Part shown: piece after piece, positions 12,113 to 35,939 of the stretch
Position numbering within the stretch: the first letter of the stretch is position 1
How the letters are laid out: each line of letters begins with the position of its first letter
Assembly: GCA_963758425.1 (NCBI GenBank)
Contig: CAVWVV010000019.1
Span: 20,129-84,128 of the forward strand
Direction: 5' to 3'
DNA: 64,000 nt
Source of the DNA: an uncultured Verrucomicrobiae bacterium
Lineage (GTDB): Bacteria; Verrucomicrobiota; Verrucomicrobiia; Chthoniobacterales; UBA10450
Position numbers and translations under genes: made by a program
The notes under the pieces: model-generated
What the model was told of the DNA's origin: nothing
Seen by the model: the letters and a program-made list of their open reading frames with translations, nothing else
Databases searched by the model: none

Positions 12113-13663
12113 ATGCCGCGAAATAACGAGCTCAACAAAATCCTGCTGATCGGCTCCGGTCCAATCGTAATCGGACAGGGTTGCGAATTTGATTATTCCG
12201 GCGTGCAAGCGTGCAAGGCGTTGCGCGAGGAAGGGTATGTGGTCGTGCTGGTCAATTCCAACCCGGCGACCATCATGACCGATCCAGAATTCGCGGACCG
12301 CACTTATATCGAGCCGATCACTCCGGAAGTGATCGAAGCGATCATGGAACGCGAAAAACCGGACGCTATTTTGCCAACTCTGGGCGGACAAACTGCGCTT
12401 AATGCTGCGATGGAGTTGAACCGCAACGGCGCATTGGCGCGACACGGAGTGAAGTTGATTGGCGCAAGCGCCCAGGCGATTGCAAAAGGCGAAGATCGCC
12501 AATTGTTCAAGGAAGCGATGTTGCGCATCGGGCTGGACGTACCGCGTTCCGGCGTAGCACGTTCTCTCGGAGATATCGATCGGATCGTTGGTGAGATCGG
12601 AACATTCCCGCTCATTATTCGGCCGGCGTTCACTCTGGGCGGCACCGGCGGCGGCATCGCTTACAATCGCGAAGAGCTCGATGCCATCGTTGCACGCGGG
12701 CTCGATCTCTCGCCGGTCCACGAAGTGCTGATCGAGGAATCGCTGGTCGGATGGAAAGAATTCGAGATGGAAGTGATGCGCGATCGGATGGACAACTGCG
12801 TGGTTGTTTGTTCCATCGAGAATTTCGATCCGATGGGTGTGCATACCGGCGACTCGATCACTGTCGCGCCGGTGCAGACGCTCACCGACAAGGAATACCA
12901 GTTGATGCGCGACGCCGCGTTCGCCGTCATTCGCGAGATCGGCGTGGAGACCGGCGGGTCGAACATTCAGTTTGCAGTGAATCCTGACAACGGACGCATG
13001 GTTGTAATTGAAATGAACCCGCGCGTCTCGCGTTCCAGCGCGCTGGCATCGAAGGCAACGGGATTTCCGATTGCGAAAATCGCGGCAAAGCTCGCGGTTG
13101 GATACACGCTCGATGAAATCAGGAACGATATCACACGCGAAACGCCGGCATGCTTTGAGCCGACCATCGATTACTGCGTGGTTAAGGTACCGCGGTTTAC
13201 GTTCGAAAAGTTTCCACAGGCCGAAGCGACGCTTACGACGCGAATGAAAAGCGTCGGCGAAGCGATGGCGATCGGACGGACGTTTAAGGAAGCCTTGCAA
13301 AAAGCGCTGCGCAGCCTGGAGATCAAACGCTTCGGTCTATGTGGCGATGGCGCAAATAAAGATGTCGATTCTGAGACGTTGCGCTTAAAGCTGGCGATCC
13401 CGAACGCGGAACGGATTTTTTATCTAGCCCAGGCGTTTCAAGACGGGATGCCAATCGATGAGGTTTTCGAATTAACGAAGATCGATAGGTGGTTTTTGAG
13501 CAATGTGCAGCAGATCGTGGAGGAAGCGGATCGGATGTCGCGCTGCCAGCGTGACTCGGCGAGCGGGCTGCCAGCCCGCGTTGGTCATGTTTGCCGAGCT
13601 GGCAGCTTGGCGGCCGAGTCAGCCAAGTTCGCCACGGCGAATCGCCTCTGGCGGACTGGCTGA
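12113..13663 (+). CDS. carB: carbamoyl-phosphate synthase large subunit, N-terminal part (carboxyphosphate domain plus the start of the oligomerisation domain)
   Basis: CarB sequence is unmistakable from [30 protein letters not shown] to ...[17 protein letters not shown]. The last roughly 45 codons are REP-B derived (..[12 protein letters not shown]..). The ORF stops at a TGA inside the REP 13-mer GGCTGACATCCAG. Confidence 0.9.
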
Positions 13664-16121
13664 CATCCAGTTCCACGACCTCGACAAACAGGCGCCGATC
13701 AAGATAACCAGACGTCACCTGCCTCATTGGGAGCAACCCGGCGTGACCTACTTCGTTACGTTTCGGTTAGCGGATGCCATCGCGAGTGACGTCCTCGCAC
13801 AATGGCGGGAAGAACGTGCCCAGTGGCTCAAGTTTCATCCTGAGCCTTGGGACTGGAAAACCGCTCGCGAATATATGCGGCGATTCGAAGAAGAACGCGA
13901 GCAGTGGCTCGATCAAGGCCAGGGCTCCTGTTTGCTGCGGAACCAACGTGTACACGAGATCATTGTGGAGAACCTCAATCATTTCGATCGCGACCGTTAT
14001 GTTCTGGATGCGTTTGTGGTGATGCCTAATCACGTGCATGTCATTGTGAAGCCGATCGAGCTGAATTCCCTGAACACAATCCTGCATGCTTGGAAGTCTT
14101 ACACTAGCAATCGGGTCAACGAACTACTTAAACGAAAAGGCCCGCTCTGGATGGCGGAAACATTCGATACGATCGTGCGGGATTCTGCACATCTGGCTGC
14201 CTGCCGCGATTATATCGAGCGTAATCCAAAGCAGGCGAACTTGAGAGATGTTGAATTTGTTCTAGAGCTGCGTGATGCGCTCGTTGCGGATGGCGATGAG
14301 CCGCAGATACAGCAGGCTGGCAGCCTGCCTGCCGAGTCAGGCTGGCAGCCTGACATCCAGCAAGAGAAATTGCTGCGCGCGAAGAAACTCGGGTTTTCGG
14401 ATCGGCAACTCGCGGTGGCGAGTGGACTTAGCGCAACCGAAATCCGCGCGAAGCGGCAGTCGTCGGGCGTAGTTCCCACTTATCGCCTCGTCGATACCTG
14501 CGCGGCAGAGTTTGAAGCTTACACGCCGTATTACTACTCGACGTATGGCGACGAGAACGAGCGGCGTGAAAGTGGTAAGCGAAAGATCATGATCCTGGGT
14601 GGCGGACCGAACCGGATCGGCCAGGGAATTGAATTCGATTACTGTTGTGTGCACGCTGCATTCGCGCTGCGCGAGCTCGGATTCGAAACGATCATGGTTA
14701 ACTCGAATCCGGAAACCGTCTCCACGGATTACGACACGAGCGACAAACTCTATTTTGAACCCCTCACCCTCGAAGACGTGCTCAATATTTATGATCAGGA
14801 GAAACCCGAGGGCGTGTTCGTCCAGTTTGGCGGTCAAACCCCGTTGAATCTGGCCAGCGGATTGAAAGCGGCAGACGTGCCGATTCTTGGCACACAGCCC
14901 GAAAGCATCGAGACGGCTGAAGATCGACGCCTGTTCGCGGATATGCTCGACAAACTTGGTCTTCGCCAAACCCCGAACGGTTCGGCGACAAGCACGGAAC
15001 AGGCTGTCGCGATAGCGAGGAAAATCGGCTACCCGGTACTCGTTAGGCCGAGCTTCGTCCTGGGCGGGCGCGCGATGGAGCTTGTCTATAATCAGGAAGA
15101 TCTTCGGCGTTACATGGCGAGCGCAATTGAAGTGACACCGGATCGTCCGGTGCTGATCGATCGTTTCCTCGAAGACGCCATCGAGGTCGATGTCGATTGC
15201 ATCTCGGATGGCGAAATGACGGTGATGGGCGCAATCATGGAGCACATCGAGGAAGCAGGCATTCACAGCGGTGACAGCGCATGCGTCATTCCCACATTCT
15301 CCTTGTCGCAAACAATTCTGGATGAGATTTCCGCTGCCACAAAGGCGATGGCGCGCGAGTTGAAGGTGCGAGGCCTGATGAATGTGCAATTCGCCGTGAA
15401 GGGCGACGACGTTTACGTGCTGGAAGTGAATCCACGCGCGTCCCGCACGGTTCCCTTCGTTAGCAAGGCAATTGGTGTCCCGCTTGCAAAACTCGCTGCC
15501 AAAGTGATGACCGGAAAATCATTGCGCGAGCTCGGTTTCACAAAGGAAATCGTGCCGAAACATTTCTCAGTGAAGGAAGCGGTGTTCCCCTTTCTGCGCT
15601 ACGAAGGCCTGGATATCTCGCTCGGACCGGAGATGAAATCGACCGGCGAAGTGATGGGGATGGATGTGGATCTCGGCCTTGCCTATGCAAAATCGCAAAT
15701 GGCGGCGCCGCCGCCGTTGCCGAAAAAAGGAAAAGTGTTCATCAGCGTCAAGGACACTGACAAGGAAGCGGTGATTCCGGTCGCGCGCGAATTTGTGAAG
15801 CTCGGCTTTGAAATCATTTCCACGAGTGGAACCGCAGTAGCGTTAACGAAAGCGAAAATCAAAGTGACCAAGGTCTTCAAAATTCACACAGGCCGCCCAA
15901 ATGTCCTCGACCGCATCAAGAATGGCGACATCAACTTCATCATCAACACGCCGAGCGGGAAAATTCCGCGCGAACACGAAGTGGTCATTCGCAATGCGGC
16001 GCTGGCGGCGAAGATTCCCATCATGACGACGGTGCGCGCGGCGCTTGCGAGCGCGAACGGAATACGGTCACTGCAAAAACGCAAAGTTCAGGTGCGCAGT
16101 CTGCAGGAATACCATACGTGA
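13503..16121 (+). CDS. carB: ORF fusing the RAYT domain to the C-terminal ~590 aa of CarB (rest of the oligomerisation domain, carbamoyl-phosphate domain, allosteric/MGS domain)
   Basis: There is no stop between the RAYT part and ...[19 protein letters not shown]...[10 protein letters not shown]...[24 protein letters not shown]... through to the end of CarB. This ORF is in a different frame from 12113..13663 and overlaps it by 161 nt. Confidence 0.85.
13541..14360 (+). mobile_element. REP-flanked RAYT unit (REP-associated tyrosine transposase, Y1 HUH family) inside carB
   Basis: Transposase-like sequence: [35 protein letters not shown] (HUH), WKSYTSNRV (candidate catalytic Tyr), [11 protein letters not shown]. 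It is flanked by family-B REPs. The 13-mers at 13658-13670 and 14348-14360 match at 12/13 positions and lie exactly 690 nt apart. Confidence 0.8.
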
Positions 16122-17005: not shown

Positions 17006-17106
17006 GGTCAGGCTGCCAGCCTGACTCGGCCGGCGAGCTGCCGAGCTTGCCGGATCCTCGACATGCTGGCAGCATGTCGTCCGAGACAGGCAGGTTGCCT
17101 GTCATC
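17006..17106. repeat. REP family B cluster (four consecutive hairpins)
   Basis: TCAGGCTGCCAGCCTGA and GACATGCTGGCAGCATGTC are perfect hairpins; GAGCTGCCGAGCTT is an imperfect palindrome; GACAGGCAGGTTGCCTGTC is near-perfect. Confidence 0.65.
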
Positions 17107-17125
17107 TAACCGTTGCATCCCTTCA

Positions 17126-18016
17126 ATGGCTACCGAACCAACCACAACAAACATCGCTCTCATCCAGATGCGATGCGGCCCGGAGCTGGAGAAGAATTTC
17201 TCGCGAGCGATTGAATTCATTCGCGAAGCGGCACAAAAAGGCGCCCAGATCGTTTGCTTGCCGGAGCTTTTTCGGTCGCAATATTTTTGCCAGACAGAAG
17301 ATCACAAGAATTTCGATTTGGCTGAGGAAATTCCGGGCAAATCAACATCGGCATTGGGAGAAGTAGCGCGAGAAACCGGCGCAGTAATCATTGCCTCACT
17401 TTTCGAGAAACGCAGCCCCGGCCTCTATCACAACACCGCCGCAATCATTGACGCGAATGGAAAATTGCTCGGCAAATACCGCAAAATGCATATCCCGGAC
17501 GATCCGCTGTATCACGAGAAGTTTTATTTCGCGCCAGGCGATCTTGGATTTCAGGCGTGGCCAACAACCCAAGGTAAGATCGGCGTCTGCGTTTGCTGGG
17601 ACCAATGGTATCCGGAAGCGGCGCGACTGACGGCGTTGCACGGCGCGGAGATTATTTTTTATCCAACAGCAATCGGCTGGCATCCATCGGAAAAGAAGGA
17701 GTTCGGCGCAGCGCAATATTCTGCATGGGAAACAATTCAGCGCAGTCACGCAATTGCGAATGGTTGCTATGTAGCGGTGCCAAATCGCGTCGGCCATGAA
17801 ACGCCTGCGGGTGGAGAAGGGATTGAATTTTGGGGACAAAGCTTCGTTTGCGCACCGGACGGCGAAATCATGGCCAAAGGTTCGGTCGATCGCGAGGAGA
17901 TCGTGATGGCCGATGTAGATTGGGGCCGCGTAAACGAGCAGCGCACGCATTGGCCATTTTTGCGCGATCGCCGCGTTGATGCCTTTTCGGAAATCCAGCA
18001 GCGTCTGATCGACTAA
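17126..18016 (+). CDS. aguB: N-carbamoylputrescine amidase (carbon-nitrogen hydrolase family)
   Basis: Trimmed to MATEPTTTNIALIQ, because the longer ORF start lies inside REPs. Motifs: CLPELF, YRKMHIPDDP, GVCVCWDQWYPEAAR. Confidence 0.85.
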   Translation: MATEPTTTNIALIQMRCGPELEKNFSRAIEFIREAAQKGAQIVCLPELFRSQYFCQTEDHKNFDLAEEIPGKSTSALGEVARETGAVIIASLFEKRSPGLYHNTAAIIDANGKLLGKYRKMHIPDDPLYHEKFYFAPGDLGFQAWPTTQGKIGVCVCWDQWYPEAARLTALHGAEIIFYPTAIGWHPSEKKEFGAAQYSAWETIQRSHAIANGCYVAVPNRVGHETPAGGEGIEFWGQSFVCAPDGEIMAKGSVDREEIVMADVDWGRVNEQRTHWPFLRDRRVDAFSEIQQRLID

Positions 18017-18183
18017 TCTCTGCGGACGGTTGAATGACATTCAGGAGGTCGGGGTTCGAGCGCCTAGGTTCCACCAGTCAATTGGAATCACTTGAGGGTC
18101 TCGCGAAGCGATCGCGGCAAACTTGGCGTAACGAGTGCAACGAAACGGCATCGTGAGGAGCATGGGCATCGAACGATAATCGA

Positions 18184-18444
18184 TTAAGCGCCAGGCGGCA
18201 TCTGGCCGGCATTGGCTTCCCGAAACTTTTTCAGATTTCGCTTAATTTGCCCTCCCTTGTCGCGTCCGGTAGCTTCGAGATACTGTTCGACTTCATTGAG
18301 CAGCGTCTGCAACCCAGGATGGCCCGCCGCAACTCCCAGGCCGAGGAGCGCGCGAATGGCATAGTGCAGCGGCATCGCACTGACCCTATCCTCCCCCGCT
18401 TTTAGGCGTTCCATCTCTGCTTCGATGCACTCGGCGAGAGTCAC
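18184..18444 (-). CDS. hypothetical 86-aa helical protein (GTG start), overlapping the end of the TIR gene
   Basis: AAGGAG lies 10 nt upstream of the GTG at 18444. The sequence looks protein-like (ECIEAEMERLKAGEDRVSAMPLHYAIRALLGLG...). It could alternatively be the frameshifted C-terminus of the TIR protein. Confidence 0.4.
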   Translation of the reverse strand: MTLAECIEAEMERLKAGEDRVSAMPLHYAIRALLGLGVAAGHPGLQTLLNEVEQYLEATGRDKGGQIKRNLKKFREANAGQMPPGA

Positions 18445-19531
18445 GGACGATTGGCTCCTTTGCTTGCTCTTTCGATTTCTCCATCAGAAGGTAGAAGACG
18501 ATTCGGTCCAGTTCCCAGATACTCGCACGCCAACTCAAAGTTTGTGCTTCCGGAAAGGCGAGTTCGCCGTCGTTAATCGCCCGTTGCTTGGCGCGCACCA
18601 ATTCCTTCCTCTCGGCAAAATCAGTCATGCGAGAGAACTCAATCGATTCCGGGATCACCGGTGCTGCCGATGGGCTGTCCAGGAGGAATCGCAGCCTCCG
18701 AATCTGCCTCAAACGCCGTTCGGAAGCGGCAGAAACGACCCCAAGCGTGGGCGAGCCGTCCGAAGCCTTGGTGAAATCCACATCGCCCTCTTCGCTAACC
18801 CAGAACTTCTTTTCTTCAATCAAGAAGCTCTTCAACAGTCCGGCGTAGCCGTCGATTGAGCTAATGAGCTGGTTAAAGAGCTCCTTTTGGTACGGCTCGC
18901 AGATGCGGTCGATCATGGTCTTATAACCCTGCAAGGTTTTTAGGGTTTCGCGGGCGCCCGAGTAGCGGTCTACCCACGTCTGGTGGGTGCACTCACGGAG
19001 CTCTTCCTGAAAAGTTTTTCGCTCGAAAAGCTCCCGAAAATTCGCAACGACGTGTGAAATGCGATCAACCTTGAGCTTCTCCATGCGCTCGTTGAGAGCT
19101 TTCCAATGGGCGTCGTAATCGGCGGGGGGCTCAGTTCCGGCCAGTTTGCAAAGATCATGGGCGAGACGCCGGGTATCGTCTTCCTTATTGGTGGTTCCCT
19201 GAAAAGCACTCAATGGGCCTTTCAAATCCTCTGAACGAACCCCAAACAAGTACGGAAACACTCTGTTCTTTTCTAGCCGCCCGAGCACAGCTCCCGCTTC
19301 GAAGTGCAGCCATTGAGATTGAGTGTTCTCCGCAGTCATGCAGATCAAAGCGGCGTCGGCTTCGGCGAGTTCGCGCCGGACTGCCTCGAACCACTCGATG
19401 CCTTTCTCTATCTGAGGCGAAAAGAAGATGTCTTCATTAGAAAGTCCAGGGACGACATGGATCAGCCATTCTTTCAAGGATTCGGCGAGTTTCTGACTAC
19501 GGATCTGAGACCAGCAAAGGAATATTTTCAT
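18386..19531 (-). CDS. TIR-domain protein with an uncharacterised ~245-aa C-terminal domain
   Basis: The N-terminal ~135 aa follow the bacterial TIR pattern: MKIFLCWS, LKEWL, GIEWFEAVRRELAEADAALICMTAEN, and SQWLHFEAGA with the conserved Glu. I recognise no motif in the C-terminal part. Confidence 0.8.
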   Translation of the reverse strand: MKIFLCWSQIRSQKLAESLKEWLIHVVPGLSNEDIFFSPQIEKGIEWFEAVRRELAEADAALICMTAENTQSQWLHFEAGAVLGRLEKNRVFPYLFGVRSEDLKGPLSAFQGTTNKEDDTRRLAHDLCKLAGTEPPADYDAHWKALNERMEKLKVDRISHVVANFRELFERKTFQEELRECTHQTWVDRYSGARETLKTLQGYKTMIDRICEPYQKELFNQLISSIDGYAGLLKSFLIEEKKFWVSEEGDVDFTKASDGSPTLGVVSAASERRLRQIRRLRFLLDSPSAAPVIPESIEFSRMTDFAERKELVRAKQRAINDGELAFPEAQTLSWRASIWELDRIVFYLLMEKSKEQAKEPIVRDSRRVHRSRDGTPKSGGG

Positions 19532-19558
19532 GGCGCCGAGTGTATAGGTCTGCGTTCG

Positions 19559-21013
19559 CTAGGAATTCCACCAGCCTGCCTTCTTGAGGCCCGCGTCGGT
19601 CTTGATGTTGGGGTCCGATTGGTGCGGGAACTCATGCAGTTGGTTGCTACCGTTCACGATGTCCTGGCCATCAGCCTTGGACACGCGTCGAGGGTGAATT
19701 CCGTAGCGAGCACCAACCGGCATCTGTTTTCCGCCGAGCGCGTTGAGCTTCTGCGTGATCAGGTCATACAGGGCCTGCATATTGAAGCCGTTCGGGTCAC
19801 CATGGTAGTCGTCGGGGTGGTCCCGAACTTTGTCCCAGTGTTTGCCTGTGCCGGCGCGAATCTCCGCCGCCGAGTATTCCCGCCAGATGACTGACCGGCC
19901 CAGGTTGCGGTCCGTTTCCTTGTGGACCGTGATTGTGAGCAGGTGTCGCGCGCGGACTGAGGCGAAGATGTACAGGTCGGCCAGGACGTCGATCGCCGCC
20001 TTGGTCCATTTGTAATAGGTGACTTTCTTGCCCTTCCGCCTGTAGCCTATGGACGCGTACTGGTCGGCACTGGAGGGGTCGCCGCGCGATCCGTCGGACT
20101 TGTCGGGCACGTCGGACTCGACGTCGGGGACGGTCTCGATGTTGATCGTGTGCTCGTTCACGTATTTTTTCCCGTTCTTGCTCAGGAACTCATAGACGGT
20201 GCCCTGCTTGTTCTTAGTGAAGTCGTGAGTGGCCGCGTAGTAGCCGGCGCGGTTGAGGAAGCCGTGCACAGCGCCGCCTTTCGTCTTGGGCTGGTTGGCC
20301 TTGAAACGCCTGTCCTTTAACGTCGCCTTTGCGCCCACGTCGTGGATGATGAACCAGCCCTTGATGATGTCGCTGGTTTTCAGGTCGGCGTTGGGTTCGT
20401 TGGCCGCCTCCTTGAGCGCCGCGTGTTCATCGAGCCACTTCGTTATGAACTCGCGGCGGTTCTTGCCCTTGAGAAACTCGTCGAACTTCGTGCCGTCCAT
20501 TTCGACAGCGGCGTCGCGCTTCGGGTCATCAAAGCGTCCCGGAATCTCGAGCATCACCTTGAGGTAGTCGGGGATCGAGACGCTGGCGACGTGGCCTTGT
20601 GCGATGCTCATGCGCTCGACCTTATGTCCTGCGCCGTCCTCCAGCACGAACCCTATTTCGGCCGCGCTCCCTTCTTCCAAAATGTCCTGGCGGGGGTTCC
20701 ACAGGTGGAAGGCCTTGCTCCCCAGCCAGAGGATGACATCGGGCTTCTTGGTAGCCCTGTAGCTCTTCTCCAACTTGGCGTTAGCCCACTTGGCATTGGC
20801 CACCGCCACGTGAGGAATAGCTGTTTTGGCTGGTTTCTTGACGAACTTGGGGTTGGGCTCCAGGTCCAACGTGAACTCCGCCATCTGGACGTTGTTCGCC
20901 GTTGGGGCGTCCGAGCGTCCGGGCTCGCTGGTGTCGCACTTGTAAACCTTGAGACGAGCACCGCTGACCTTGCTGGCGTCCGCGGTTCCCCAGCGGTCGA
21001 CGATGAGCGCCAC
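19559..21013 (-). CDS. hypothetical 484-aa protein with weak Amidase_2/PGRP-like motifs
   Basis: Intact ORF with a GTG start. Candidate motifs, all divergent: WFIIHDVG, VHGFLNRAGYY, NEHTINIE, LTITVHKETDR. It is in frame with the upstream acidic ORF across a single TAA. Confidence 0.5.
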   Translation of the reverse strand: MALIVDRWGTADASKVSGARLKVYKCDTSEPGRSDAPTANNVQMAEFTLDLEPNPKFVKKPAKTAIPHVAVANAKWANAKLEKSYRATKKPDVILWLGSKAFHLWNPRQDILEEGSAAEIGFVLEDGAGHKVERMSIAQGHVASVSIPDYLKVMLEIPGRFDDPKRDAAVEMDGTKFDEFLKGKNRREFITKWLDEHAALKEAANEPNADLKTSDIIKGWFIIHDVGAKATLKDRRFKANQPKTKGGAVHGFLNRAGYYAATHDFTKNKQGTVYEFLSKNGKKYVNEHTINIETVPDVESDVPDKSDGSRGDPSSADQYASIGYRRKGKKVTYYKWTKAAIDVLADLYIFASVRARHLLTITVHKETDRNLGRSVIWREYSAAEIRAGTGKHWDKVRDHPDDYHGDPNGFNMQALYDLITQKLNALGGKQMPVGARYGIHPRRVSKADGQDIVNGSNQLHEFPHQSDPNIKTDAGLKKAGWWNS

Positions 21014-21064
21014 CTCCGCCGGCGTGCTACCGGTCCTGGCCTTGTTGTTTACGATGCGGGCGGC

Positions 21065-21694
21065 TTAGGCGACACCCGGCAGCATTTCGGAATCCTCGTC
21101 CTCAAGCTCAAGCTCCGTTTCCTCTTCCTCTTCGTCGGCGTTGGGTTTATCAGAATCGCCCTCTGAAACTCGCCGAGTTCCCTCCTTTTCGCTGTACATA
21201 TGGAGAACAGACCTGCGTCTCGGGCTGATAGGCGATTTCCCCTTCCTCTTCAAGCGTCTGGGTACGGCGCCTCGTCCTCGGGGGTTAAAAGTCCCTCTAG
21301 CTCCTCGTTTCCTTCGTTCAGCGGAGCTTCCTCGCTAGCTCCGCTGAGATATTCATCAGATCCTTCAGTTGCAAGGTTCTCATCTTCCTCCGGCTCCGAC
21401 TCGGCGATATGAGGCTCCGAAAGTTCAACTCCTTCGCTCTCGCCAAGCTCGTGTGTTACCAGTTCCTTTAACCCCGCTTCAGTGCCGAAGTCGATCGGGG
21501 CGTCGGTGACGCCGAAATCTTTGGCGAAGGTCATCCACATGATATTCTTCTTCCGATGCGGCGAGGTTCACAGAAGCTCCGGTCAGTCCCTTAAGAAACG
21601 GGCTCTCCTTTGCAAGCCTCTCGACTGTGGAATCGAAATCGGGCCGCGGTTCAGCGCCCAGTAACTCTTCATCAAGAAACGGAGACTTCATCAT
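21065..21694 (-). pseudogene. acidic ESPF-motif protein, readable only across three frames
   Basis: The pieces are 21479..21694 (MMKSPFLDEELLG...KESPFLKGL), 21250..21540 and 21065..21253 (Asp/Glu-rich). The start overlaps the upstream stop as ATGA. Confidence 0.45.
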
Positions 21695-22817
21695 TCAACA
21701 GTCGCCACGAAATCGTCTTCGGGAAAAAACATCTCCGGGTGGATTCCGGAGAGATCCCCAGACCGCATGGCTTTTTGCAGTTCTTTTCGATATGCCTCCA
21801 CTGCGTCAAGAAGCGGAACGTCGGGGTTCGTTTCAATAATCGAAACGCCTTGGGGCACGCGCTGCTGATTGGCGGCGAGGTCGTCGTTGATCTCTTTGAT
21901 CAGCGGTCCTCTTCATTATCCAGCTTCTCGCCTTGGCTGCTGATTCGCTTTCTCGAAACTTGCGGCATGCCGCTGGATTTCGTCGATGACCCGAGCGCGC
22001 AGCACATTGCCCCTTCCATCCTTTGCGGCTTCGAGTCGCTGTTGCAATGTTGCCCACGAAGCACGCACCGCGTCCGAATGCTCCCTCGCAATGTTGGCGA
22101 GCAACGCATTGTGCTTGAGGTACCGCAAGTGCGGAGGAGACTTGGGGAGCCCGGGACCGGCAGGGCCAAGCTTCTTCTCCGACAGCTTGCAGACCTCTTT
22201 CCATAACGCCTTTGCGTCCGAAGGTTTCGACGTGAGTGGTCTTACAACATAGGGCGTCCTCATTCCCCGATACATAGCCTGGACCACCCTCTGCTGCTGT
22301 CTCGTTGGATTCCCCAGCGTCGAGTTCGTGGACCTCAGCGTGTTTGTTGTTGATACTGATGACGACATGCCGATTGAACGTCAGGTCCGCTCGAATCATC
22401 GCTCCGACATGAGCAGGCATCTCGACCAAGAAAATGCGCGGATTTGCGATCCCCAGAGGTGTCGAGCCGGGCGATAAAAGGCGCCCGAGTTTGTGCAGCC
22501 AGCGCACCGCATAGACGAAGCAATCGTGCACCAGCGAACCCGTGATCGCGCGCGGGAATGCACGAATCAGAGTAATCTGGGACACCGCATCCCTCGCGAA
22601 GGTCGTGCGGAGCGTGAACGGTGAAAGCCTCGAGGGACCCGCTACGTAATTCAGAATCATTTCTAACTTCGTCTCCCTCCGCAGCAACGGTGAGTCCCAC
22701 GTTTCCCTTACCCAGGCCTGCCAGGAGTTAGTGTCGTGCAGCTTCGGAAGAGGGTCGGCCTCTCTCTTTTTCCGCAGGCGCTCGATGAAATCTCAGCTTG
22801 ACGCTGTCGAAATACAT
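21691..22817 (-). pseudogene. hypothetical protein, at least 4 frame breaks
   Basis: The ATG at 22817 overlaps the upstream TAA (TAATG). Protein-like segments are spread over ORFs 21833..22687 and 21916..22368 and an unlisted tail (LIKEINDDLAANQQ...FVATVE). That tail lies behind in-frame TAA TGA codons. Confidence 0.45.
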
Positions 22818-23284
22818 TAGCAGGCAGTTGTGTTCATCCCCGTTATCGGGATAGGTGTGGGAGTGTAGTGCTGGTAGCCGATATCGCTGGCACCGGCGGG
22901 ATTGAAGTAATCCCGATACAAGGTAGGCGTTAGGCGAAATGTCGGAGCCAGCGCGTTCTCATCGTCGACAAGGTGTGTTATCGCGGCGGTCTCCAAGTCT
23001 TTCTCCCATTCCTTGTTCACCACTTCCCATCTCAGCCGGCTTTTCGCCGCAGCCTCCAAGACACCGTCTTGCAGCGCCTGATAATGCCGCCAGAGTATCT
23101 GCACCGCCAGCGTTCGGTACGCGAGCAGCAGGTTGTTATCGACGAAAATAGGGGCACGACTCGTAAGTTCCGACTGAAAGAAGCGAAACATGGCGGCTGC
23201 CCGGTTCATCTGCCGCCGGTGGGTTAGTGGTTTGACCACAATGGGGGAAATCTGATGAAGGCGCCGCATCGCGAAGCTGTACAA
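22817..23284 (-). CDS. hypothetical 155-aa protein
   Basis: Uninterrupted ORF with a TTG start. No motif recognised. Confidence 0.4.
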   Translation of the reverse strand: MYSFAMRRLHQISPIVVKPLTHRRQMNRAAAMFRFFQSELTSRAPIFVDNNLLLAYRTLAVQILWRHYQALQDGVLEAAAKSRLRWEVVNKEWEKDLETAAITHLVDDENALAPTFRLTPTLYRDYFNPAGASDIGYQHYTPTPIPITGMNTTAC

Positions 23285-23348
23285 ATTTTTGCCCCATCAG
23301 CGCCAGTAAGCGCGCTGCCTAGACGGTCGGGGTGGTCCACGAAGTTGC

Positions 23349-23784
23349 TTACCTGTTGCCGGGCTCCGTCGGAGTGTCCAGAATGAACGCCTCCGCCCCT
23401 AAACGGGCCACATGAATCCTGAATCTCTGCGACGGCCCTCCCCGTAGCGACTCAAATGTCGCATTCAGCGCGGCGGGAAGTCTGTTGCTGAATTTCACCG
23501 GATCTCCGAACACGGCAAACGCCGCGTCCAGCGCCTTGGCTTGCGCTGTGCCCATTGCCTGCAATTGCCCGCGCAGGGTTGCGTCATTCGGAAGCCCCGG
23601 AAGACCCGCGGGCAGCGTTAGGATCTGCTCCTCCAACTCGGGAGTAGGCGTCGGCGGTTTCATCCTCGTCGTGCTCCTCCTCGTCCCGGGCTTCGGCCAT
23701 CTCCTCGTCTTCAAATTCAAGTTCCTCGTCAGGTTTCTCAGCGTGAGCAAGCTCATCCCTGGCCGTTAACGCGCTCTTCGTCAA
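23349..23784 (-). pseudogene. small protein with an acidic N-terminus, split between two or three frames
   Basis: 23584..23784 (..DEELEFEDEEMAEARDEEEHDEDE..) continues plausibly as 23349..23756 (KPPTPTPELEEQILTLPAGLPGLPNDATLRGQL...). Confidence 0.4.
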
Positions 23785-24257
23785 AGTCTTCGGCGTTCGC
23801 CATCCTGCTCCCGTGGTTCTTCGAACTCGGAGCCTCGTTCGGGCTCAGTGCCGCTGGACAACGGCGGCGCTGCGGGCTCCTCGGCTTCTTCTTCACTCGG
23901 CGCATCTAGAAGCCCGTCATGCAACATGACTTCTTCTTCGGCAAGCAGGTCTTCGCCGAGTTCATCGGATCCTCCCAGCTCCCGCTCAACGAGTATCCCG
24001 GGTTCCTCGACCAAGGCACCTTGGAAAGGGCTCTCCGCTATCAGGGCAGCCACACGCGGTTCCAACTCCTCCTCGGCTCTCTTGGCGAAGAGCTCTCGAT
24101 GGAGGAAAAGGAGACTCGCCGGCCCCGTATGGTCCGTGGACGAGTGCTGCTCCAAGAAGATTGCGCTTTCGTGCTCGAAAGCCGGGGTTTTGCGGGTCGG
24201 CGCGGCGCTCGCAGTTCGCACCTGAGGACAGGGGACAACAGCTTGCTTTGCGGGCAT
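23781..24257 (-). CDS. acidic ESPF-motif protein
   Basis: 158-aa ORF containing AFEHESAIFLEQ and LIAESPFQGALVEE, with a Glu-rich C-terminus. Confidence 0.45.
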   Translation of the reverse strand: MPAKQAVVPCPQVRTASAAPTRKTPAFEHESAIFLEQHSSTDHTGPASLLFLHRELFAKRAEEELEPRVAALIAESPFQGALVEEPGILVERELGGSDELGEDLLAEEEVMLHDGLLDAPSEEEAEEPAAPPLSSGTEPERGSEFEEPREQDGERRRL

Positions 24258-25804
24258 GCCGCGCGCATCACGTCGTTCGCCGCGCGCACACCCGACCGTA
24301 GCGCGCCCTCCATGTATCCGAAGAAGTCCATCTGCGTGTGCTCACCCGCAAAAAACAGCCGTCCCTGCAATGGCTCGCTGAGCTTTTTGCCAATTGTGAA
24401 GATCTGTCCTTTCTTCGGTGACGCGTAGCCTGACCTAATGAATTGCTCCTGGGACCAGTCAACCAGCAGTGGGGTCGACTTAAGATTTTTCTCGTAGTTC
24501 CGATAGAGATCCATCAGACCCTGCCGGAACTTTTTTCGGGAGGAATGTGTCCGCCGGGCAAAGACGGAAAACACGATCCCCTGACCAGCACGTTGCGTTT
24601 GGTTGTCGGTTCCCTCCCAGACCATGCCAATATCCAATGAACCGCCGTTGGGCGCGGCCTTATCCTTGATCCAAAAGCGTTCGGTCATGTTGCTGAAGAA
24701 TTTCACCGCGTCCCCCATCCCCATCATGTCGACCATTTTCGGGCCCTTCGGATCTAGCGTGATGCTCAATTTCCCCCAAACGCTAGGCGGGATCGCTAGG
24801 ATCACGTAGTCGAAGTCTTCTTTCGATTCCTTGCGATAGATGGGCTCTCTGTTGGAACGGGGACTACCGTCAGCGTGACGCGATTCGAGATGTCTATTCC
24901 CTTTACCATCCTGTTCAGCTTAATCTCAGGCGGCTTGGTGCGGCCTTTGACCATGGCCTCGAATTTCCGCCGCCATTTTAGTCGCGAGCTTCTGATTGCC
25001 GTCGGCGCATCGAAAGATCTCTAACTCATCCCAATAACCCATCAGGTCAGTGTCCTTCGGCGTGAACGGGCCGCCCTTCACCAGACAGAGGAGACCGAGA
25101 AAGTTCAGTTCGTGGAGCGGCGCCACGTAATTGTTCAAGACCAGCATCTCCATCGCTTTCCAAAGCCGGCCGTTTTTCCTTATCTTCAGAACCCCGAGCG
25201 CGTCAGCGACGGACATCTTGTCAAACTTCTCCAGGCCCTTCTGGTCCCACGGTCGGGACGGATATTTGATCTGTCTTGCCAACTTGGCGATCGGCTTCAG
25301 GATCTTGTCTCTCAAGTCCTTCTCAAGCTTCTCGATCTCGGCCATTGATAGAGGCTTATCCAACCGGAGCTTCAACTCGAGGCCTGCCTTGGCATAAAGA
25401 TCTTTGTCCATCCTCCCTATCCATGTCAGGCCGTATCCAAGTGCGAGTTCGCGCCACATCAGGTGGAACGATCCGATAAGCTCCGCCCCGCCTCGGGCGA
25501 TCCGGCCCGCGCTGAATGTCGTGTCGCTGCGGACGCGTCCGCCCACCTCTTTGTGCGCTTCAAACAGACTGACCCTGGCCAGGCTGTGTTTGGTAAGCCA
25601 CCTTGCCGCCGCCAAACCGGCGAAGCCCCCGCCCACAATCGCCACCGAAGTGTTTTTCAGCCAGGCGCATTCAATCGGAAACAACGGTGGCTGCCAGCGT
25701 GAGTGCTCGAGGCGGAGATTCTCCTCGATCCGAGCAAGGCGTTCGGACCCGGTGAGCGTTGGTCCAAAGAAACTGTGGAGTTGGGTGTAGAGCGAGCGTG
25801 ACAT
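24041..25804 (-). pseudogene. FAD-dependent amine oxidase (flavin monoamine/L-amino-acid oxidase family), disrupted
   Basis: The N-terminus has VAIVGGGFAGLAAARWL..FEAHKEVGGRV. The C-terminus has FFAGEHT..GYMEGALRSGVRAA. ORFs 24926..25804 and 24041..24805 share a frame but are separated by TGA and TAA. The expected middle segment (EIKLNRMVKGIDISNRVTLTV) is readable only in another frame. The last ~70 codons are an out-of-frame read of the next gene. Confidence 0.75.
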
Positions 25805-26089
25805 GGCGGGCGGATACTAGGGCGAAACGCTGCCCATGGACGACGTTCGGCGCCGGTCCGTCGAGGATGAGGGTTTGCTGCCAGCGGCAGAACTAGGCCG
25901 ATCAAGTAGTTTCTTCGCGGCCTGGCCGCGACGGGGTTTTGAGCCATGAACACTAACAAACACAAGGCAATCTCCTGAGATCAACGAGGAAACCGGCCCC
26001 GCTCACATTCAAATATCTTCAAAGACCTGAGCCCGGCCTCCTGACATTGACAGTGCCGAAGCAAATGCAAGCGCGGACATGGTCGACCT

Positions 26090-27525
26090 TTAGCTGGTCG
26101 CAACCTTGCTAGCCTTCACATCGCGGCCGGTGATCGCGGTCCAGTGAGTGATGATCGTCAGCATGTCGGCTCTCACCGGATTGTCATTGCCGTCGGCGTC
26201 CTTAGGCTCTGTACAACGCCTGCACTGCTGAAGTCGCATTTTCGCTGTAAGTGTCCATTCCGATTTGGATCAAGAGGCGAGAAATCGGATCTGCGATGTC
26301 AAAGAAGTTCTTGGATAAGCCATGCGCAGGCAATCCGACCCGCTCGGCGATCTTGAATAGACGGTTTTCGGGACCGTTTGCCTCCGCACGAAGGGATTTC
26401 ACGATGGGAGAATCAAACTCGAGGTCAAATGGAACCAAGCCATCATGGACACGAAAGCAAACTCTTCCCGGAAGGTTTCCTGCCAGCCTTCGAGACTGAA
26501 GCATGTCATGCAAACTTTCGGCTAACTCCGAAATCTTAGAATCATCGGTCTGCTTGACCCCGCTGGTATTGACGACATTCGTGATACCCACCCATACCTC
26601 CCGCAGGAATTCTTCGAACGTCTTAACAAATTCCGAATTGGCCGCCTCGGCCTTGACATAGGGGTAAGGTTGTCCGGCATCTGTCCCGTGGTTAAGCTCC
26701 ATGCCAAACATCCGCTGATACGCATTGCGGCGGCTCGCCCTTAGGTCTGAACGGATGTGGCTCGATACGTTCGTGATTAGGAATGGGGCAGGATCGCTGT
26801 AAAACAATTCCGCGTGGCGCGCAACCAATGCTGCGTGTCCGCCAGATCGGTCGAGGTGGTGCCGAGGAGTGGGGTGCCGAACTTCTCCCCATGGCGATAT
26901 TCGTGCAATACTCGCCGGAATATCTCGTAAATTCGCGTGTTCTCGATCATGTACGCGTAGATCAAGTGGTCCCAGCGGAGAAGCGCAAACTTTCCGTTAC
27001 CGTTGATAACATCGTCCACCGGCACGCCCGCTATCCCGATCGGCGGCAATGGCACTATTGGAGGCGATGCCCCTGGGCTAAGGACTATTCCAGACCGATG
27101 GTTCGGCGCTAAGAAAGTTCGGGTGGCCGACGGTAAGGTCTGGGTTAACAACCGTTGGGGCCCCGGCCCAGTACGTCGAGATAGGCCGCTAATTCCAGTG
27201 GGTGAGTGCGAAGCACACCTCTCGCGTTCTCTTCCGGGGTTGTCGAACCAAAAACAAGGGTCTCACCGGCTGAATTGGTGAAAAGACGTTTGGGAAGTTG
27301 TCTGAACATAATGATTCCTCGCTTTAAGGCGCTATTTTGATAGCGGAAGGTGTTATGAGATTTAGCCTTGATGGCCTCGGATGGCTCTATTGCTTTTTCC
27401 CCCAGGGAATTCGGCTCTATTACGCTTGCCACGCCACGCGGCGCGGCATTTTTTTGCAGAGCTTTAGTTAAGGCCTGAACGACCTCCGTCGTTGAAGCCG
27501 AAGGTTGTGTTTTTTTCGTTGCCAT
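26090..27525 (-). pseudogene. hypothetical protein (WDHLIYAYMIENTRIYEIF segment), at least 3 frame breaks
   Basis: The pieces are 27145..27525, 26777..27151, 26202..26828 and an unlisted tail (KDADGNDNPVRADMLTIITHWTAITGRDV..) ending at 26090. Confidence 0.4.
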
Positions 27526-27610
27526 TTTTTCCTCCTCTTGTCTTTGATTTCACGCAGCCTGTAATGCCCCGCCTAGCCTTAGCATTGCCTGCTCCTGTAG
27601 GTTTAGGATG

Positions 27611-28814
27611 TTATTCAAATCTCGCGGCCTGCTGGCGAGCTGGAAACCCGTGAGCGCGAGAATCCTCATTGGCTCCGACCAGAGCCAGTGTGCGGAAGTA
27701 AACAAGGCCGGACCGATTCGTCAATCGAGTCACCCAGCTCTTCGCCGGGCTCACTCGCTCTGGTTGAATCAGCGCCCGAAGTGAGCGCCCATTGAAGGCG
27801 CGCATCGTAATATCGAGCGTCAGGCGAACCACGGTGTTCAGTATCGGAAGAGAGTCTTCCAGCAAACTGCGAACATCCGATGGCGCATTAGTCGTCGGAT
27901 GCAGAACCGTCCACGAGAACGCCAGATCATCCCACGGACCAGCGCAATAAAAATATGGGGCATATCTCGACGCCCAACAACACCCGGATGTAACTCACCG
28001 GGTGCGGGTCGCCCTGGGTGTATCGAAACACCATGGGCAGGTCGCCGGCCAGGATGTTGCGTAATGCGGCCACGCTCGCGAAGCCAGTGTGCACAAAGGC
28101 GAAAGCATCTGCCGCGATCTCGGACGACCAACTAGCCCAGGCATCGGCAAACTCGTTCGATCTTCCAGAGATGCCTGAGAAAGGGTGGCGGCGAGTTCGT
28201 CGTTCCATCCCGCGATATGGGCTACATGGTGCGCGGCCTCGTGGATCAATGTCGTGGGTTGCAACAAATTGTGGTGAACGATCTTGATCGCGGCCACCGG
28301 GCTCACTTCTCCTCCATCCCATAAGCGAAGTCCCGCTTTCAGAATGGACGCGCCAAGTCCTTTATCCAGGTAGGTCAGGGCAATGGGCGTTGTCTTGCCA
28401 ATCTGGTCGAGCAGTTGCGTCATGCTTCGATAAGCAAGCGTGTCACAGGCTAGAAGAAAGGGCGGCTATTTGTGGATTCGTTCGCACGTTGATGGCATCG
28501 GCAAAAAAGTCCAGCGTCGTTTCCGTCCGGAGATACTGTTTCCGAAAGGCGAGCAGTTTCCGACGAATCTTAGCCATAGCGGTCGGGCTGTGGGCTGCGC
28601 GCTGCATGGCGGTCAAGACATTCGCGTCGCCCTGAAGTCGATCGAATGATGCTGCGAAATGGCGCCGCAAAGAGACCCCCAGATATCGCTCAAGACGCCC
28701 CCAGGCTTCCTGCGAAGCCAGGTCATCTAGCTTGAGACGAGAGGCCGCGAGCGCCCAATGCGCGATTTGCCGCTCGGTTTGAGTTTGAACATTCTGGATC
28801 TGATGAGTGCACAT
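27611..28814 (-). pseudogene. HExxH zinc-metallopeptidase-like protein, fragmented
   Basis: TLIHEAAHHVAH (HExxH) lies in 27995..28423. A candidate third ligand (SSEIAADAFAF) lies in 27927..28322. The pieces occupy all three frames (28443..28814, 27995..28423, 27927..28322, 27838..28131, 27611..27865). Confidence 0.5.
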
Positions 28815-31221
28815 TTATGCCCCGGGAAGACGTTGACGCGAATGATGGGCTGACTACCTTGACCGATCGCTTCGGCGACCTTGTTGCTTGGACACTTTTC
28901 GACCAGCGCTTGACCGAGTTCTTTCAGTCCTTGCGGGTGCTCGATCGTGAACTGAAGGGTCACGCCGTATGCCGGATCTTCCGTGGCGGCGAGGTATTTC
29001 TGCGACTGCGTCTTGATGAAATCAGAGAAGCCATGCACCAGCCACTCCTGCATTTTCGTAATGAAAACTTGTGGAACAACGCCCGGCAGTCTCTGCAAAA
29101 TGGATTCTGGAGATTGTCCGGGGCGTATTCCAGGGTTTACGATCCGAAGCCGCCGGGGCCGTTCGCCGCGCAGGATATGTGACAGTCTGGGGGCCACAGC
29201 CTTGCTGAAGCGAACCGCCAGAGATCCGGCGTGCGATTGCTGGCGCAGCCGGACGGCGAGCTTCTGGGCCTTCACCTCGCTGAGGTAGATGCAGACATGA
29301 ATTTGATCTTGCGGACCATCCAATGTCACGTTGATATGAAAGAGCCGCTGATCATGATGACGGTGCCATCTTCCGGGGACGGTTAGCGGTCGCCTTCCTG
29401 GAATATCCAGATGAAATAACCGTTGTCCTGAGGCCACGTTCTGCCTGTCTGAACCCCGGAGTGGGCTACGGCCGAGACCAGGCTTACCGAGCAGGGCCGA
29501 CGCGGCCTCCTCTGTCAGCGGATGCAACTGGGAGACGGTAGCTTCGTCTGAGGCGCCCAGACCTGGGGTCTCGCTTTCGCCGCGCGCAATATCGGCGACG
29601 GTTGTGCCGGGCAGAGCTTCGTAGAGATGCACTTCCGCCTGACCTCGGCACCTCTGGCAGTCCGAGCTGATCCTGCAGGTAGTCGGATAGAGGAACGCCT
29701 TCGAAGCTTTCGACTTCCTCAGCCATGTGCGGCGTGATTCTTACTTTGAAAGCTCGGGTACACCGTTTGTATCGCTTGCGCCCACGCAAGGGCATGAACA
29801 GCCATGCAGCGTTGACGCCTGCCTACCAAAAGTTCGGCCGCTGTTGATAGGTTGCCTCGGAAAGCACGGCGGGTAAGTTCGCGGCCGCCGCCTACTGAAA
29901 CGCCTCCAGCACGAATCCTTCCAGCAACCTGGTTATCGAGGATATAATCCAGCAACGAGGTGACTCGATTGATAGTCTCTTCGACCGTTCCCGCTACTGC
30001 AGAAGCAGCAAGACCGGATTTCTCCTGGTCCGACATTTCGAGAGTCAAGAGTTTTAGTCCCGCGTCTACAATCGCTTTGGAGAGCGCAGGAGCCTGCTCC
30101 GGGCCAATAAGTTTCGAGATCAATTTGGCCAGCAGTTGAGCCAGAAAGTTCACGACGTTTTTCCGTCCACCCAGACGTATCGCCAGACGGAGCGCAGGTA
30201 GAACTGCAGGCAGGAAGTTCTGGACGTAAGGCTCGGGACTCTCGCCTGGCTTGAGGTTATCGAGCTCTTGAATGAATTGATCGCGCACATCATCGAGATT
30301 AGCGAAGACAGGAGTCGCGACCGCGGAGGAATTGCTCCGCAGTACCGGCTGCTTCCATGTCGGGTTCAGCTTCATCCTGCGCCAGCAAGGCCCCTGCGAT
30401 CTGTGCGTCAAACTGCTGTTGCATCGTGGGAAGGTCGCTGCCAGCAGCGGCTTGGACCGGCGATCCGGCATTTTCCGGAGGTATCGCCGCGTCGCCGCCC
30501 GCCGCCGTCGCCGGTTCCGCTACTTTCGGCGCGGCAAACCCAACTTTGCCTCAAGTTTCTGGGCCGCCGGTTGAATAGCTTCCGGAAGCTTTCCGATCGC
30601 TTTCTGCAGAACCCGATTCAAAAGCGGCTTAATCAGCGCCTTAATCTTGTTGAGGATGGGGCCGAGTCCAATCTTCGCTATCCCCTTGGCCACGCCCTTC
30701 ACCGCCGAGCCAACTTTTTTTAGCAACTTTCCGAAGAAGTTCTCGAACTCCGGGTCGATCTGCCCAGAAGGCGAATATTGTCCAAAGAAAGACTCGATCT
30801 CGCTTTCGACCAACCCGGTCCCATCACGCGAGCCGAACTCTCGCGCTACCGCATCCACCATGGCTTCCGATTCCCGCACCAAGTGAGAAAAGTGTTGCGT
30901 GACCACTCGGTCGGCTTCGCTGGAAGAATAACCGGAAGCGAGATGATTCTGATGCAAGTTTCGGACGTCGGTCATTAGCTCGAACAGCGCCTCGTCAAAT
31001 TCTTCATCGTAGAGGTTATTGACGATTGTCGCATACGCCTCGCGGACAGGGTCGTCGTATTCGCCCTCACCTTGAATCGACTCGTAGACGGAAACGAACG
31101 GCGAACGAATTGGGGTTGTCGCGCGAACTTCCGCTTCCTCCGCCTCTGCATTTTCAAGCTCGAAGCTCGTAGAATTCAAGAAAGGTACCGCAGCGTTTCC
31201 AGCCGTCATAAGATCGTTCAC
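28815..31221 (-). pseudogene. large hypothetical protein (acidic FELE/SPF N-terminus, Lys-rich amphipathic segment), fragmented
   Basis: The pieces are 30520..31221, an unlisted alternative-frame segment (FAAPKVAEPATAAAGG...TAEQF), 29719..30471, 29484..29795 and 28727..29632. A TAA lies immediately before the ATG of the next gene at 28814. Confidence 0.45.
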
Positions 31222-31295
31222 CTAGATTTAGAGTGCGGCCAACTTTGTAGAATGGACGCCTTTCGACGCTAGACCCCTAAAAGGCTAAATAATTC

Positions 31296-32450: not shown

Positions 32451-32624
32451 CAATCGGTACGCCGTGGGATTAAACTACGCCGTGAAATCGGGTGCCGGTT
32501 GGTCGACCAAGCTGGTCGACGTGGGACAGCGCTGGACTCCTGGTCTAGTCCTAGACTCCGAGGACAATCCCCACATGGTCTTCTACGACGCCGAGCACGG
32601 CGCACTGATCTACGCGACACGATC

Positions 32625-32831
32625 GTCGGGCACGGAATCGAATTCGGTGGCAAAGTTTCATGTGCGCGCCGAGCGGAATGATCGTTGCCAAGGGCTCGGT
32701 CGATCGCGAAGAGATCGTCATAGCTGAGATCGACTGGGAGCGCGGGAGATCGACATCGTACTCATTGGCTGTTCCTGCGGGATCGGCGCGTCGATGCTTA
32801 CGGCGGCCTCGAGCAACGGATGCTAGACTGA
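32625..32831 (+). pseudogene. decayed second copy of the aguB 3' end
   Basis: Aligns by eye to 17820-18016. GIEFGGK..(frameshift)..IVAKGSVDREEIVIAEIDWER...FLRDRRVDAYGGLEQRMLD* compares with GIEFWGQSFVCAPDGEIMAKGSVDREEIVMADVDWGR...FLRDRRVDAFSEIQQRLID*. Confidence 0.75.
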
Positions 32832-32877
32832 TTTTTTTTGGGCGGTCTGCTGCGCGGTTTATGTTAATACGGTGGCG

Positions 32878-32994: not shown

Positions 32995-33081
32995 AATCAT
33001 TTGTTCCAACGTCTCCTTGGAAATGGCGGAGTCCTTCGTGCTCCGTTACGCTCCTATGTTATACTGCACCTACACGCAATC

Positions 33082-33525: not shown

Positions 33526-33578
33526 AAAGTCCGAGACGCGGCTTGCTGAAATTAAGTTATGGAAAGAAGAAGTTAGCC

Positions 33579-34004: not shown

Positions 34005-34047
34005 ACTGAGATCCGACTGTTGCGCGGTTCGTGTTAATACGAGTTCG

Positions 34048-35926: not shown

Positions 35927-35939
35927 CAAGTGGGAAGCT

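Follow-up and report, generated by a model that had tools for sequence, protein, structure and literature searches.

A widespread TIR protein family with an undescribed C-terminal domain, met as one frame-split gene at the edge of a genomic island in an uncultured Verrucomicrobiae bacterium

The DNA analysed here is a stretch of 64,000 nucleotides from an uncultured Verrucomicrobiae bacterium (assembly GCA_963758425.1, contig CAVWVV010000019.1, positions 20,129 to 84,128), referred to throughout as the window; coordinates are counted from its first base, except where they follow the name of another locus. Two overlapping open reading frames (ORFs) on its minus strand had been described, in an initial annotation made from the sequence alone, as an intact gene for a TIR-domain protein and a small, possibly translationally coupled partner. 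They are instead the two parts of a single gene, named TIR-X here, that encodes a protein of about 448 amino acids, and the site at which its reading frame is broken can be located to within a codon. TIR-X represents an uncharacterised family of proteins from soil bacteria and is probably a self-contained, one-chain combination of a sensor and a TIR NAD+ hydrolase (NADase) with a role in conflict or defence. What appears to be new, as judged from sequences and structural models, is the fusion of this familiar type of effector to an undescribed C-terminal domain (C-domain). The features concerned are listed in Table 1.

A single gene split by one extra nucleotide

As read from the window, the larger ORF (18386..19531) encodes 381 amino acids from an ATG start and the smaller one (18184..18444) encodes 86 amino acids from a GTG start, the two overlapping by 59 nt, just as the initial annotation had described. 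An artificial in silico fusion of both was used as the query against a collection of 5.8 billion proteins, yielding 39 homologues. The closest of these, P0001 (448 amino acids, 96% identity) and P0002 (449 amino acids, 88% identity), each cover 100% of the fused query, and even at 28-36% identity the matches, about 440-530 amino acids in length, are single proteins, covering 84-100% of it. Altogether, 37 of the 39 homologues are single proteins spanning both ORFs, or truncated versions of such proteins. The initial annotation had suggested inspecting the neighbourhoods of homologues for co-occurrence of the pair; among the 39 matches to the fused query, none has a separate small ORF. Furthermore, protein alignments match the 86 amino acid ORF position by position with the last 85 residues of the homologues. 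This stretch includes the family-invariant residues E372, M386-P387-L388 and Y390, plus a D.GGQ motif, and both the alignment and the AlphaFold2 (AF2) model have these motifs continuing the fold of the C-domain.

Alignment of the DNA with two related loci, L001 and L002, exposes the cause of the split. On the minus strand the window reads GTC CGT G ACT CTC, where L001 has GTC CGT ACC CTC and L002 has GTC CGT GCG CTC. The same comparison could be made with Logan contigs, which are Illumina-based, from four independent soil-metagenome runs (X1, X2, X3 and X6); these are 95-99% alike to the window, and in all four runs one base is absent at 18442, at full depth. Removal of one base from the window restores an uninterrupted frame of 448 codons. 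Because the homologues are fused and the extra base is missing from both the relatives and the runs, there is no partner gene, and the window version of TIR-X is not intact, as its product would be missing about 85 conserved residues from the C-terminus, among them the invariant E372 and the MPLHYA motif. The 'intact' and 'uninterrupted' genes of the supposed two-gene layout are thus two halves of one gene, and it is the other option raised at the time, a frameshifted extension, that proves correct.

The AAGGAG noted upstream of the GTG is present at the spacing described. It was rejected as a ribosome-binding site, since it codes for protein and lacks conservation, L002 having AAGCAG in its place. 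Programmed frameshifting was also rejected, because no slippery sequence is present and the relatives are in frame.

Table 1. Position and basis of the features discussed, in window coordinates
Feature	Position	Strand	Description or basis
TIR-X	18184..19531	-	Single gene, about 448 codons after removal of one base; appears in the window as two overlapping ORFs
TIR domain	19127..19531	-	Residues 1 to about 135; TIR_2, PDLC03016, PHROG 13899, AF2, Foldseek
Glu78 GAA codon, putative catalytic	19298..19300	-	Read from sequence; invariant; aligned to the SWCLDEL Glu
C-terminal domain, about 300 residues	18184..19084	-	Predicted all-alpha with one beta-hairpin (AF2)
Extra nucleotide splitting TIR-X	18442..18444	-	DNA alignment with L001 and L002; indel list; Logan contigs
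AAGGAG	18460-18455	-	10 nt before the GTG; coding (..AKEP.., Lys-Glu codons) in the single gene
p546	19562..21199	-	Upstream neighbour, 27 nt from the TIR-X start; final gene of a conserved operon
Genomic island, about 14.8 kb	17983..32798		TIR-X at left edge; 3' end of the CN-hydrolase gene imperfectly repeated in direct orientation at the two ends

The TIR domain

The identification of the N-terminus as a TIR domain stands. The PADLOC model PDLC03016 ('TIR-TM') matches residues 1-158 (E = 1.4e-31), and the Pfam family TIR_2 matches residues 20-113 (E = 4e-6) and is found in 27 of 30 family members; PHROG 13899 matches P0002 (E = 7e-29). In the AF2 model of P0002 (mean pLDDT 86.8), a beta-alpha fold occupies residues 3-131, and the top 24 matches of this model in a Foldseek search of the PDB are all TIR-domain proteins. 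The best is the TIR filament of SpbK (9phb; E = 3e-4, TM score 0.71 on the target), followed by SPARTA TIR-APAZ, plant TIRs, SARM1, AbTir and TIR-STING. Sequence, a predicted flavodoxin-like beta-alpha fold and a catalytic-type residue all point to membership of the TIR superfamily.

The glutamate in WLHFEAGA to which attention had been drawn, E78, is invariant in 30 aligned homologues, as are W74, F77 and G80, and it is visibly kept in all 60 further members that were fetched. This position is presumably that of the catalytic residue, as is presumably the case for the glutamate of the plant SWCLDEL motif. A search of the PDB with the family profile finds plant TIR NADases, and E78 (..SQWLHFEAGA..) aligns to the SWCLDEL glutamate of 7xoz. 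TIR-X is consequently predicted, by sequence comparison, to have NADase activity. The same TIR subtype is common to about 60 other genome loci and to PHROG 13899, there with different and shorter C-terminal regions; the 60 or so genome loci also share the 'WP.L' helix that follows the domain.

The C-terminal domain and its distribution

When modelled alone with AF2 from an alignment of 21 sequences, the C-domain is predicted to form about a dozen helices and one beta-hairpin (pLDDT 88, pTM 0.84). Foldseek found no match to this fold in either the PDB (best E = 0.68, TM score <0.3) or BFVD (best E = 0.4). Searching PDB sequences with a profile of the C-domain gave zero matches, and the full-length profile matched TIR domains only. 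No Pfam family was detected outside the TIR domain in any of 30 members, and neither the 86 amino acid ORF nor the C-domain matched anything in Pfam, NCBIfam, PADLOC or PHROGs. The initial failure to recognise this domain therefore persists after profile and fold searches. A hydrophobic segment is also absent: the maximum Kyte-Doolittle mean over 19 residues is 1.32 in TIR-X, and none reaches 1.6 in any member of the family.

A search of 1.84 billion 50%-identity representatives with the C-domain profile retrieved 478 clusters at E <= 1e-3, of which 331 had E <= 1e-10 and 159 had E <= 1e-30; the size of the family is put at 331 clusters or more. The domain starts at residue 130-230, approximately, in full-length members. 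All 60 of the fetched sequences begin with the same CWSG..RS...HFEAGA-type TIR, hence the C-domain has never been seen with another effector; likewise, inspection of 90 full-length members found this TIR joined to it in every case. Its conserved motifs in a 30-sequence alignment are KTF.EP..EC.DQ.W..RY, DGY, S.W[DE][LF]DRI..YL, E.ER, MPLHYA.RAL and D.GGQ, and its invariant residues are K172, C181, W186, Y229, K309, W339, D342, R343, E372 and MPLHY. Members are spread over Acidobacteriota, Chloroflexota, Nitrospirota, Methylomirabilota, Desulfobacterota, Pseudomonadota and other phyla, the lineages including Chloroflexi, Methylomirabilis, Desulfobacterales, Rhodocyclales and Mesorhizobium, and they often lie in islands.

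The genes flanking these members vary considerably. In L002, which carries the 88%-identical TIR-X, the neighbours are TIR-WD40, TPR-S, SLATT, patatin, CHAT-TIR and TIR genes. In a metagenome-assembled genome (MAG) of Chloroflexi, the TIR-X homologue adjoins VWA-TIR, CHAT/TPR-S and TIR genes, and another member adjoins TIR, nSTAND1, MAP3K_TRAF_bd/TPR-S and CHAT genes. The neighbours in a Methylomirabilis MAG are DruA, a ThsB-like TIR and Peptidase_C13; elsewhere they are Tc-toxin genes, or a PLD/MZB and radical-SAM/AAA cluster, and some members lie among plain housekeeping genes. A Pfam census was made of the 129 ORFs within 6 kb of TIR-X homologues in 16 species-representative genomes, in which the commonest neighbours were TIR_2 (4), TPR_2 (4), nSTAND1 (3) and WD40 (3). 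Neither this census nor about 12 independent gene-level contexts revealed an obligate partner. The architecture of the family, TIR plus C-domain, is fixed, and it has no obligate neighbour, though TIR, CHAT, STAND, TPR and SLATT conflict genes are frequent, if not constant, companions. Weak matches to 23S_rRNA_IVP or bAvd-like four-helix-bundle proteins are encoded near TIR-X at 35638-36288 (+) in the window and at L003:4973-5335; these are unrelated loci.

Comparison with known TIR systems

The fusion of TIR domains to variable sensor domains is a well-known theme. One such protein, the abortive-infection NADase SpbK from ICEBs1 of Bacillus subtilis, resembles TIR-X in having a helical non-catalytic part and a TIR on one chain, in needing no partner gene and in being carried by a mobile element, and its TIR is the best structural match to that of TIR-X. 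SpbK is activated by trigger-induced clustering of its TIRs: the helical sensor domain docks on a phage portal protein, the TIRs cluster and the NADase is switched on (PMC12847820). The order of the domains is reversed in SpbK, where the sensor is N-terminal, and this sensor is a four-helix bundle of 94 residues, compared to the approximately 300 residues of the C-domain. With TIR-X compared by sequence and model alone, no sequence similarity beyond the TIR was found, nor any similarity in fold when the C-domain was searched with Foldseek. TIR-X probably works in the manner of SpbK-type single-chain TIR NADases, despite being unrelated to them outside the TIR.

By sequence, the closest TIR subtype is that of PDLC03016 'TIR-TM' and PHROG 13899. 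However, only positions 1-164 of the 293 in the 'TIR-TM' model align with TIR-X, the C-terminal halves being unrelated, and the membrane-spanning C-terminal half of 'TIR-TM' has no counterpart in TIR-X. A search of the literature on 'TIR-TM' found nothing relevant.

Thoeris ThsB, the TIR effectors of CBASS and Pycsar, and SPARTA TIR-APAZ all have in common with TIR-X a TIR domain with the catalytic glutamate. As regards Thoeris, there is no ThsB_TIR match, no PADLOC match among the island proteins and no recurrent SIR2, SLOG or Macro neighbour. No cyclase is present in any of the contexts, and no SAVED, STING or cNMP-binding match was found, arguing against CBASS and Pycsar; PycTIR and CAP12 give weak matches to TIR-X that are limited to the TIR (E = 0.003-0.09). 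For SPARTA, the C-domain alone finds no APAZ chain, the Foldseek match to TIR-APAZ extends over about 165 columns of the TIR only, and no short Argonaute occurs in the gene-level contexts or among the top neighbour families. A TIR-STAND or Avs-like protein is not indicated either, as no NTPase family is found in 30 members and the C-domain is modelled as a helical bundle with a beta-hairpin. Nor does TIR-X belong with coupled two-gene TIR systems, given that the small ORF is the C-terminus of a single protein in all homologues. The initial view that the locus corresponds to no named TIR system is hence upheld for Thoeris, CBASS/Pycsar, SPARTA, TIR-STAND and 'TIR-TM'.

Two looser likenesses deserve mention. 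Several TIR-X loci share CHAT, TPR-S, nSTAND1, MAP3K_TRAF_bd, VWA, SLATT and TIR genes with the multi-component conflict systems described from 'multicellular' bacteria (Kaur, Burroughs, Iyer, Aravind; PMC8195603), although TIR-X itself has no detectable effector-associated or Death-like adaptor domain or NTPase, and sometimes stands alone amid housekeeping genes. The likeness to SARM1 (ARM-SAM-TIR), which also joins an all-helical regulatory domain to a TIR NADase in one chain, is conceptual: domain order and fold differ, the SAM domain is absent and the match to the ARM domain of 7lcz is insignificant (E = 2.7, TM score 0.27).

Proposed function and alternatives

The simplest model for TIR-X is a self-contained sensor-effector, because the architecture is fixed, the glutamate is invariant, no partner is conserved and the scattered members are often found in islands. 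A sensor coupled to a TIR NADase is hence the most likely function, with the C-domain presumed to be the sensor and the system presumed to serve in defence. The C-domain would keep the TIR domains apart until it bound a trigger, for example an invader protein or a stress-related ligand; once released, the TIR domains would assemble with one another through the BE interface, and their hydrolysis of NAD+ would arrest or kill the cell, as happens with SpbK and other single-chain TIR NADases.

Several observations weigh against this interpretation. The TIR_2 score of the window protein, 27.7 bits, falls just below the 28-bit gathering cut-off. Conserved polar residues in the C-domain (K172, C181, D342, R343 and E372) could belong to the site of an enzyme or of a ligand instead of to a protein sensor. 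At several loci numerous other TIR genes are present, an arrangement also compatible with a role in a larger network, and in two unrelated lineages TIR-X lies beside the same p848-p419-p408 module, hinting at a link between them. Finally, two readings of the frameshift in the window are possible: a gene inactivated very recently as its island decays, or a single assembly error in a gene that is intact.

Among the alternatives, it is unlikely, though worth consideration, that TIR-X generates a signal in the way that Thoeris ThsB does, with the C-domain as the sensor of infection and a messenger of the cyclic ADP-ribose (cADPR) or His-ADPR type acting on effectors whose genes lie elsewhere in those islands, for instance SLATT, patatin or CHAT. 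Bacterial TIRs can produce signals (PMC12847820), many homologues lie amid SLATT, patatin, CHAT and other TIR genes, and the window itself has a SLATT/DUF4231 gene (33001..33525). Nevertheless, no effector family recurs beside TIR-X in the 129-ORF census, several contexts are devoid of any conflict genes, there is neither a ThsA-like SIR2, SLOG or Macro protein nor a match to the Pfam family ThsB_TIR, and the SLATT cassette in the window was inserted separately, between direct repeats of its own.

There is a smaller chance that TIR-X is an accessory gene, such as a guard, immunity or toxin component, of the operon upstream of it, which comprises p848, p419, p63, p408, an amine oxidase gene and p546. 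TIR-X begins 27 nt past p546 on the same strand, and MAGs of Rhodocyclaceae and Zoogloeaceae have a TIR-X homologue with p848-p419-p408 homologues no more than 6 kb away. Yet L092-L095 have the operon but no TIR-X, most TIR-X loci, including the 88%-identical L002, lack the operon, and the Rhodocyclaceae and Zoogloeaceae loci are near-duplicates (approximately 92% identity), leaving just two independent co-occurrences. The repeated placement of TIR-X beside this sigma-54-linked p848-p419-p408(-p546) operon nonetheless raises the possibility of a functional link to a second undescribed system.

A non-enzymatic role, with the TIR as a homotypic adaptor that recruits, or is recruited by, other TIRs of the multi-TIR/CHAT/STAND islands, is distinctly improbable. 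Neighbourhoods with 2-5 further TIR proteins do recur, and adaptor roles have been proposed for such domains in these systems (PMC8195603); against this, many loci have no other TIR, and the glutamate and W..FE.G motif are invariant in 30 members, the glutamate being kept in 60 more, which argues for catalysis over an adaptor role. The gene contexts favour none of these three readings, whether of TIR-X as signal producer, operon component or adaptor.

An intact 381 amino acid TIR protein translationally coupled to an 86 amino acid helical partner can be dismissed as highly implausible, since, although both ORFs exist with their overlap, the GTG start and an AAGGAG at 10-nt spacing, this layout occurs in no homologue, the homologues being fused; the small ORF bears E372, MPLHYA and D.GGQ and so continues the C-domain fold; the extra base is private to the window; and the AAGGAG is not conserved.

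The genomic island and its boundaries

The insertion site of the island is the 3' end of a CN-hydrolase gene (17063..18016). The last 170 nt or so of this gene (17811-17983) recur at 32625-32798 with 71-82% identity, and this second copy translates as a frameshifted remnant of the CN-hydrolase C-terminus. The site without the insertion could be observed in the metagenomic runs that share most sampled words with the first 9 kb of the window (X25-X28; 66-82%). These have essentially no depth over approximately 17983-34077 (bin means <=1.2, as against 8-34 on the flanks), and a contig from X25 fuses 17982 directly to 34078, constituting an empty site. The island is therefore missing from the relatives that are closest by core genome. 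TIR-X is its outermost gene, and the position at the island edge given in the initial annotation is confirmed by its stop codon lying about 200 nt inside the left boundary. Neither an integrase nor a tRNA was found at the island ends.

A second insertion adjoins the right-hand end, where direct repeats of 147 nt (32847-32993 and 34017-34163, 82% alike) define a 1.17 kb cassette containing the SLATT/DUF4231 gene and a 153 amino acid ORF (33543..34004). The last gene before the right-hand island repeat is a 384 amino acid ORF (31296-32450, plus strand) with no family match, whose C-terminus resembles, by eye, a helix-turn-helix of the LuxR/GerE type.

Decay or assembly error

The island carries many private indels, and there are two ways to account for them. 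Over 11.9 kb (window 17609-29521), the window and L001 are 98.3% identical and differ by 36 indel events, most of which involve one base and many of which fall within homopolymer runs; long genes in L001 correspond to fragments in the window. At sites 27960 and 28459 the Illumina-based contigs agree with L001 against the window, and they show further one-base differences from the window at 28.6-30.6 kb, past the extent of L001. In the flanking housekeeping genes, the indels are mostly compensated pairs or intergenic and the ORFs are long and open, with the sole exception of an X1 contig, about 93% alike, that has 5 gaps. Decay of an acquired island would produce such a pattern, and so would long-read assembly of a metagenome where the island was present in only part of the population and therefore received poor polishing. 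Even the best run for the island contains <=57% of its sampled words.

Indels that break the frame of this gene are not restricted to the window. The gene for P0001 contains a compensated -1/+1 pair, at L001:11197 and L001:11250 (window 18333 and 18281), that shifts 17 residues of the C-domain out of frame, which suggests that the L001 contig too is affected by indel errors or decay. A one-base deletion at 19328 (TIR codon 68, before the catalytic glutamate) is present in contigs from X2 (28x) and X3 (8.6x), and this independent event implies that natural inactivation of TIR-X does occur. The ratio of nonsynonymous to synonymous substitution rates (dN/dS) relative to L002 is 0.32 overall, 0.27 in the TIR and 0.33 in the C-domain. 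Purifying selection, as estimated from these sequences, is visible only on the deeper lineage separating TIR-X from its 88%-identical relative. The earlier suggestion that these ORFs are the undamaged part of the island still under selection is not supported, in view of the frame-breaking insertion in TIR-X and a private nonsense codon in p546. As written, the window copy is probably not functional.

The adjacent operon and other features

The genes upstream of TIR-X on the same strand (window 19562-31221) are p848, p419, p63, p408, the amine oxidase gene, p337 and p546, all in a fragmented state. The nonsense codon in p546 is a TAA at codon 45 (21065-21067), where L001 encodes Tyr and an X2 contig has TAT. 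Intact copies of the operon elsewhere have the order p790/818-p419-p70/110-p401/382-(amine oxidase or p163)-p546 family (L092:2434-11986, L094:3921-12862); they adjoin a sigma-54 activator, and no TIR-X follows them. Apart from the amine oxidase, none of the operon proteins has a Pfam or PADLOC match. The p419 protein contains HEAGH, and the p546 family ranges from 500 to 950 amino acids, one homologue being fused to VanY. In the Rhodocyclaceae and Zoogloeaceae MAGs (L020:11519-21176 and L023:11982-19396), the TIR-X homologue is succeeded by genes for TIR-WD40 or pentapeptide-TIR proteins and by p848-p419-p408 homologues.

Outside the island, carB (12113-16121, plus strand) is also represented by two overlapping ORFs. 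The first 270 or so residues of the second (13503..16121) include a match to an IS200-like Y1 transposase of the RAYT type, and the reading frame passes unbroken from these residues to the latter half of carbamoyl-phosphate synthase.

Significance

What first made this locus attractive, the pairing of an intact gene with a small coupled partner, does not stand, and it serves instead as an example of an annotation trap, in which a one-base indel made one gene resemble an intact effector plus a coupled partner. The significance of what replaces it is moderate, the function being argued by analogy. In several hundred 50%-identity clusters a TIR of the catalytic type is paired with a conserved domain for which Pfam, PADLOC and the PDB have no entry. 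It is tentatively put forward that TIR-X constitutes, in a single gene, a widespread immune or conflict system that had escaped recognition, in which the C-domain may be a new type of trigger sensor gating a TIR NADase. Should the C-domain prove to be such a sensor, the range of recognition modules joined to TIR NADases would gain a new one, in the form of a simple one-gene system.

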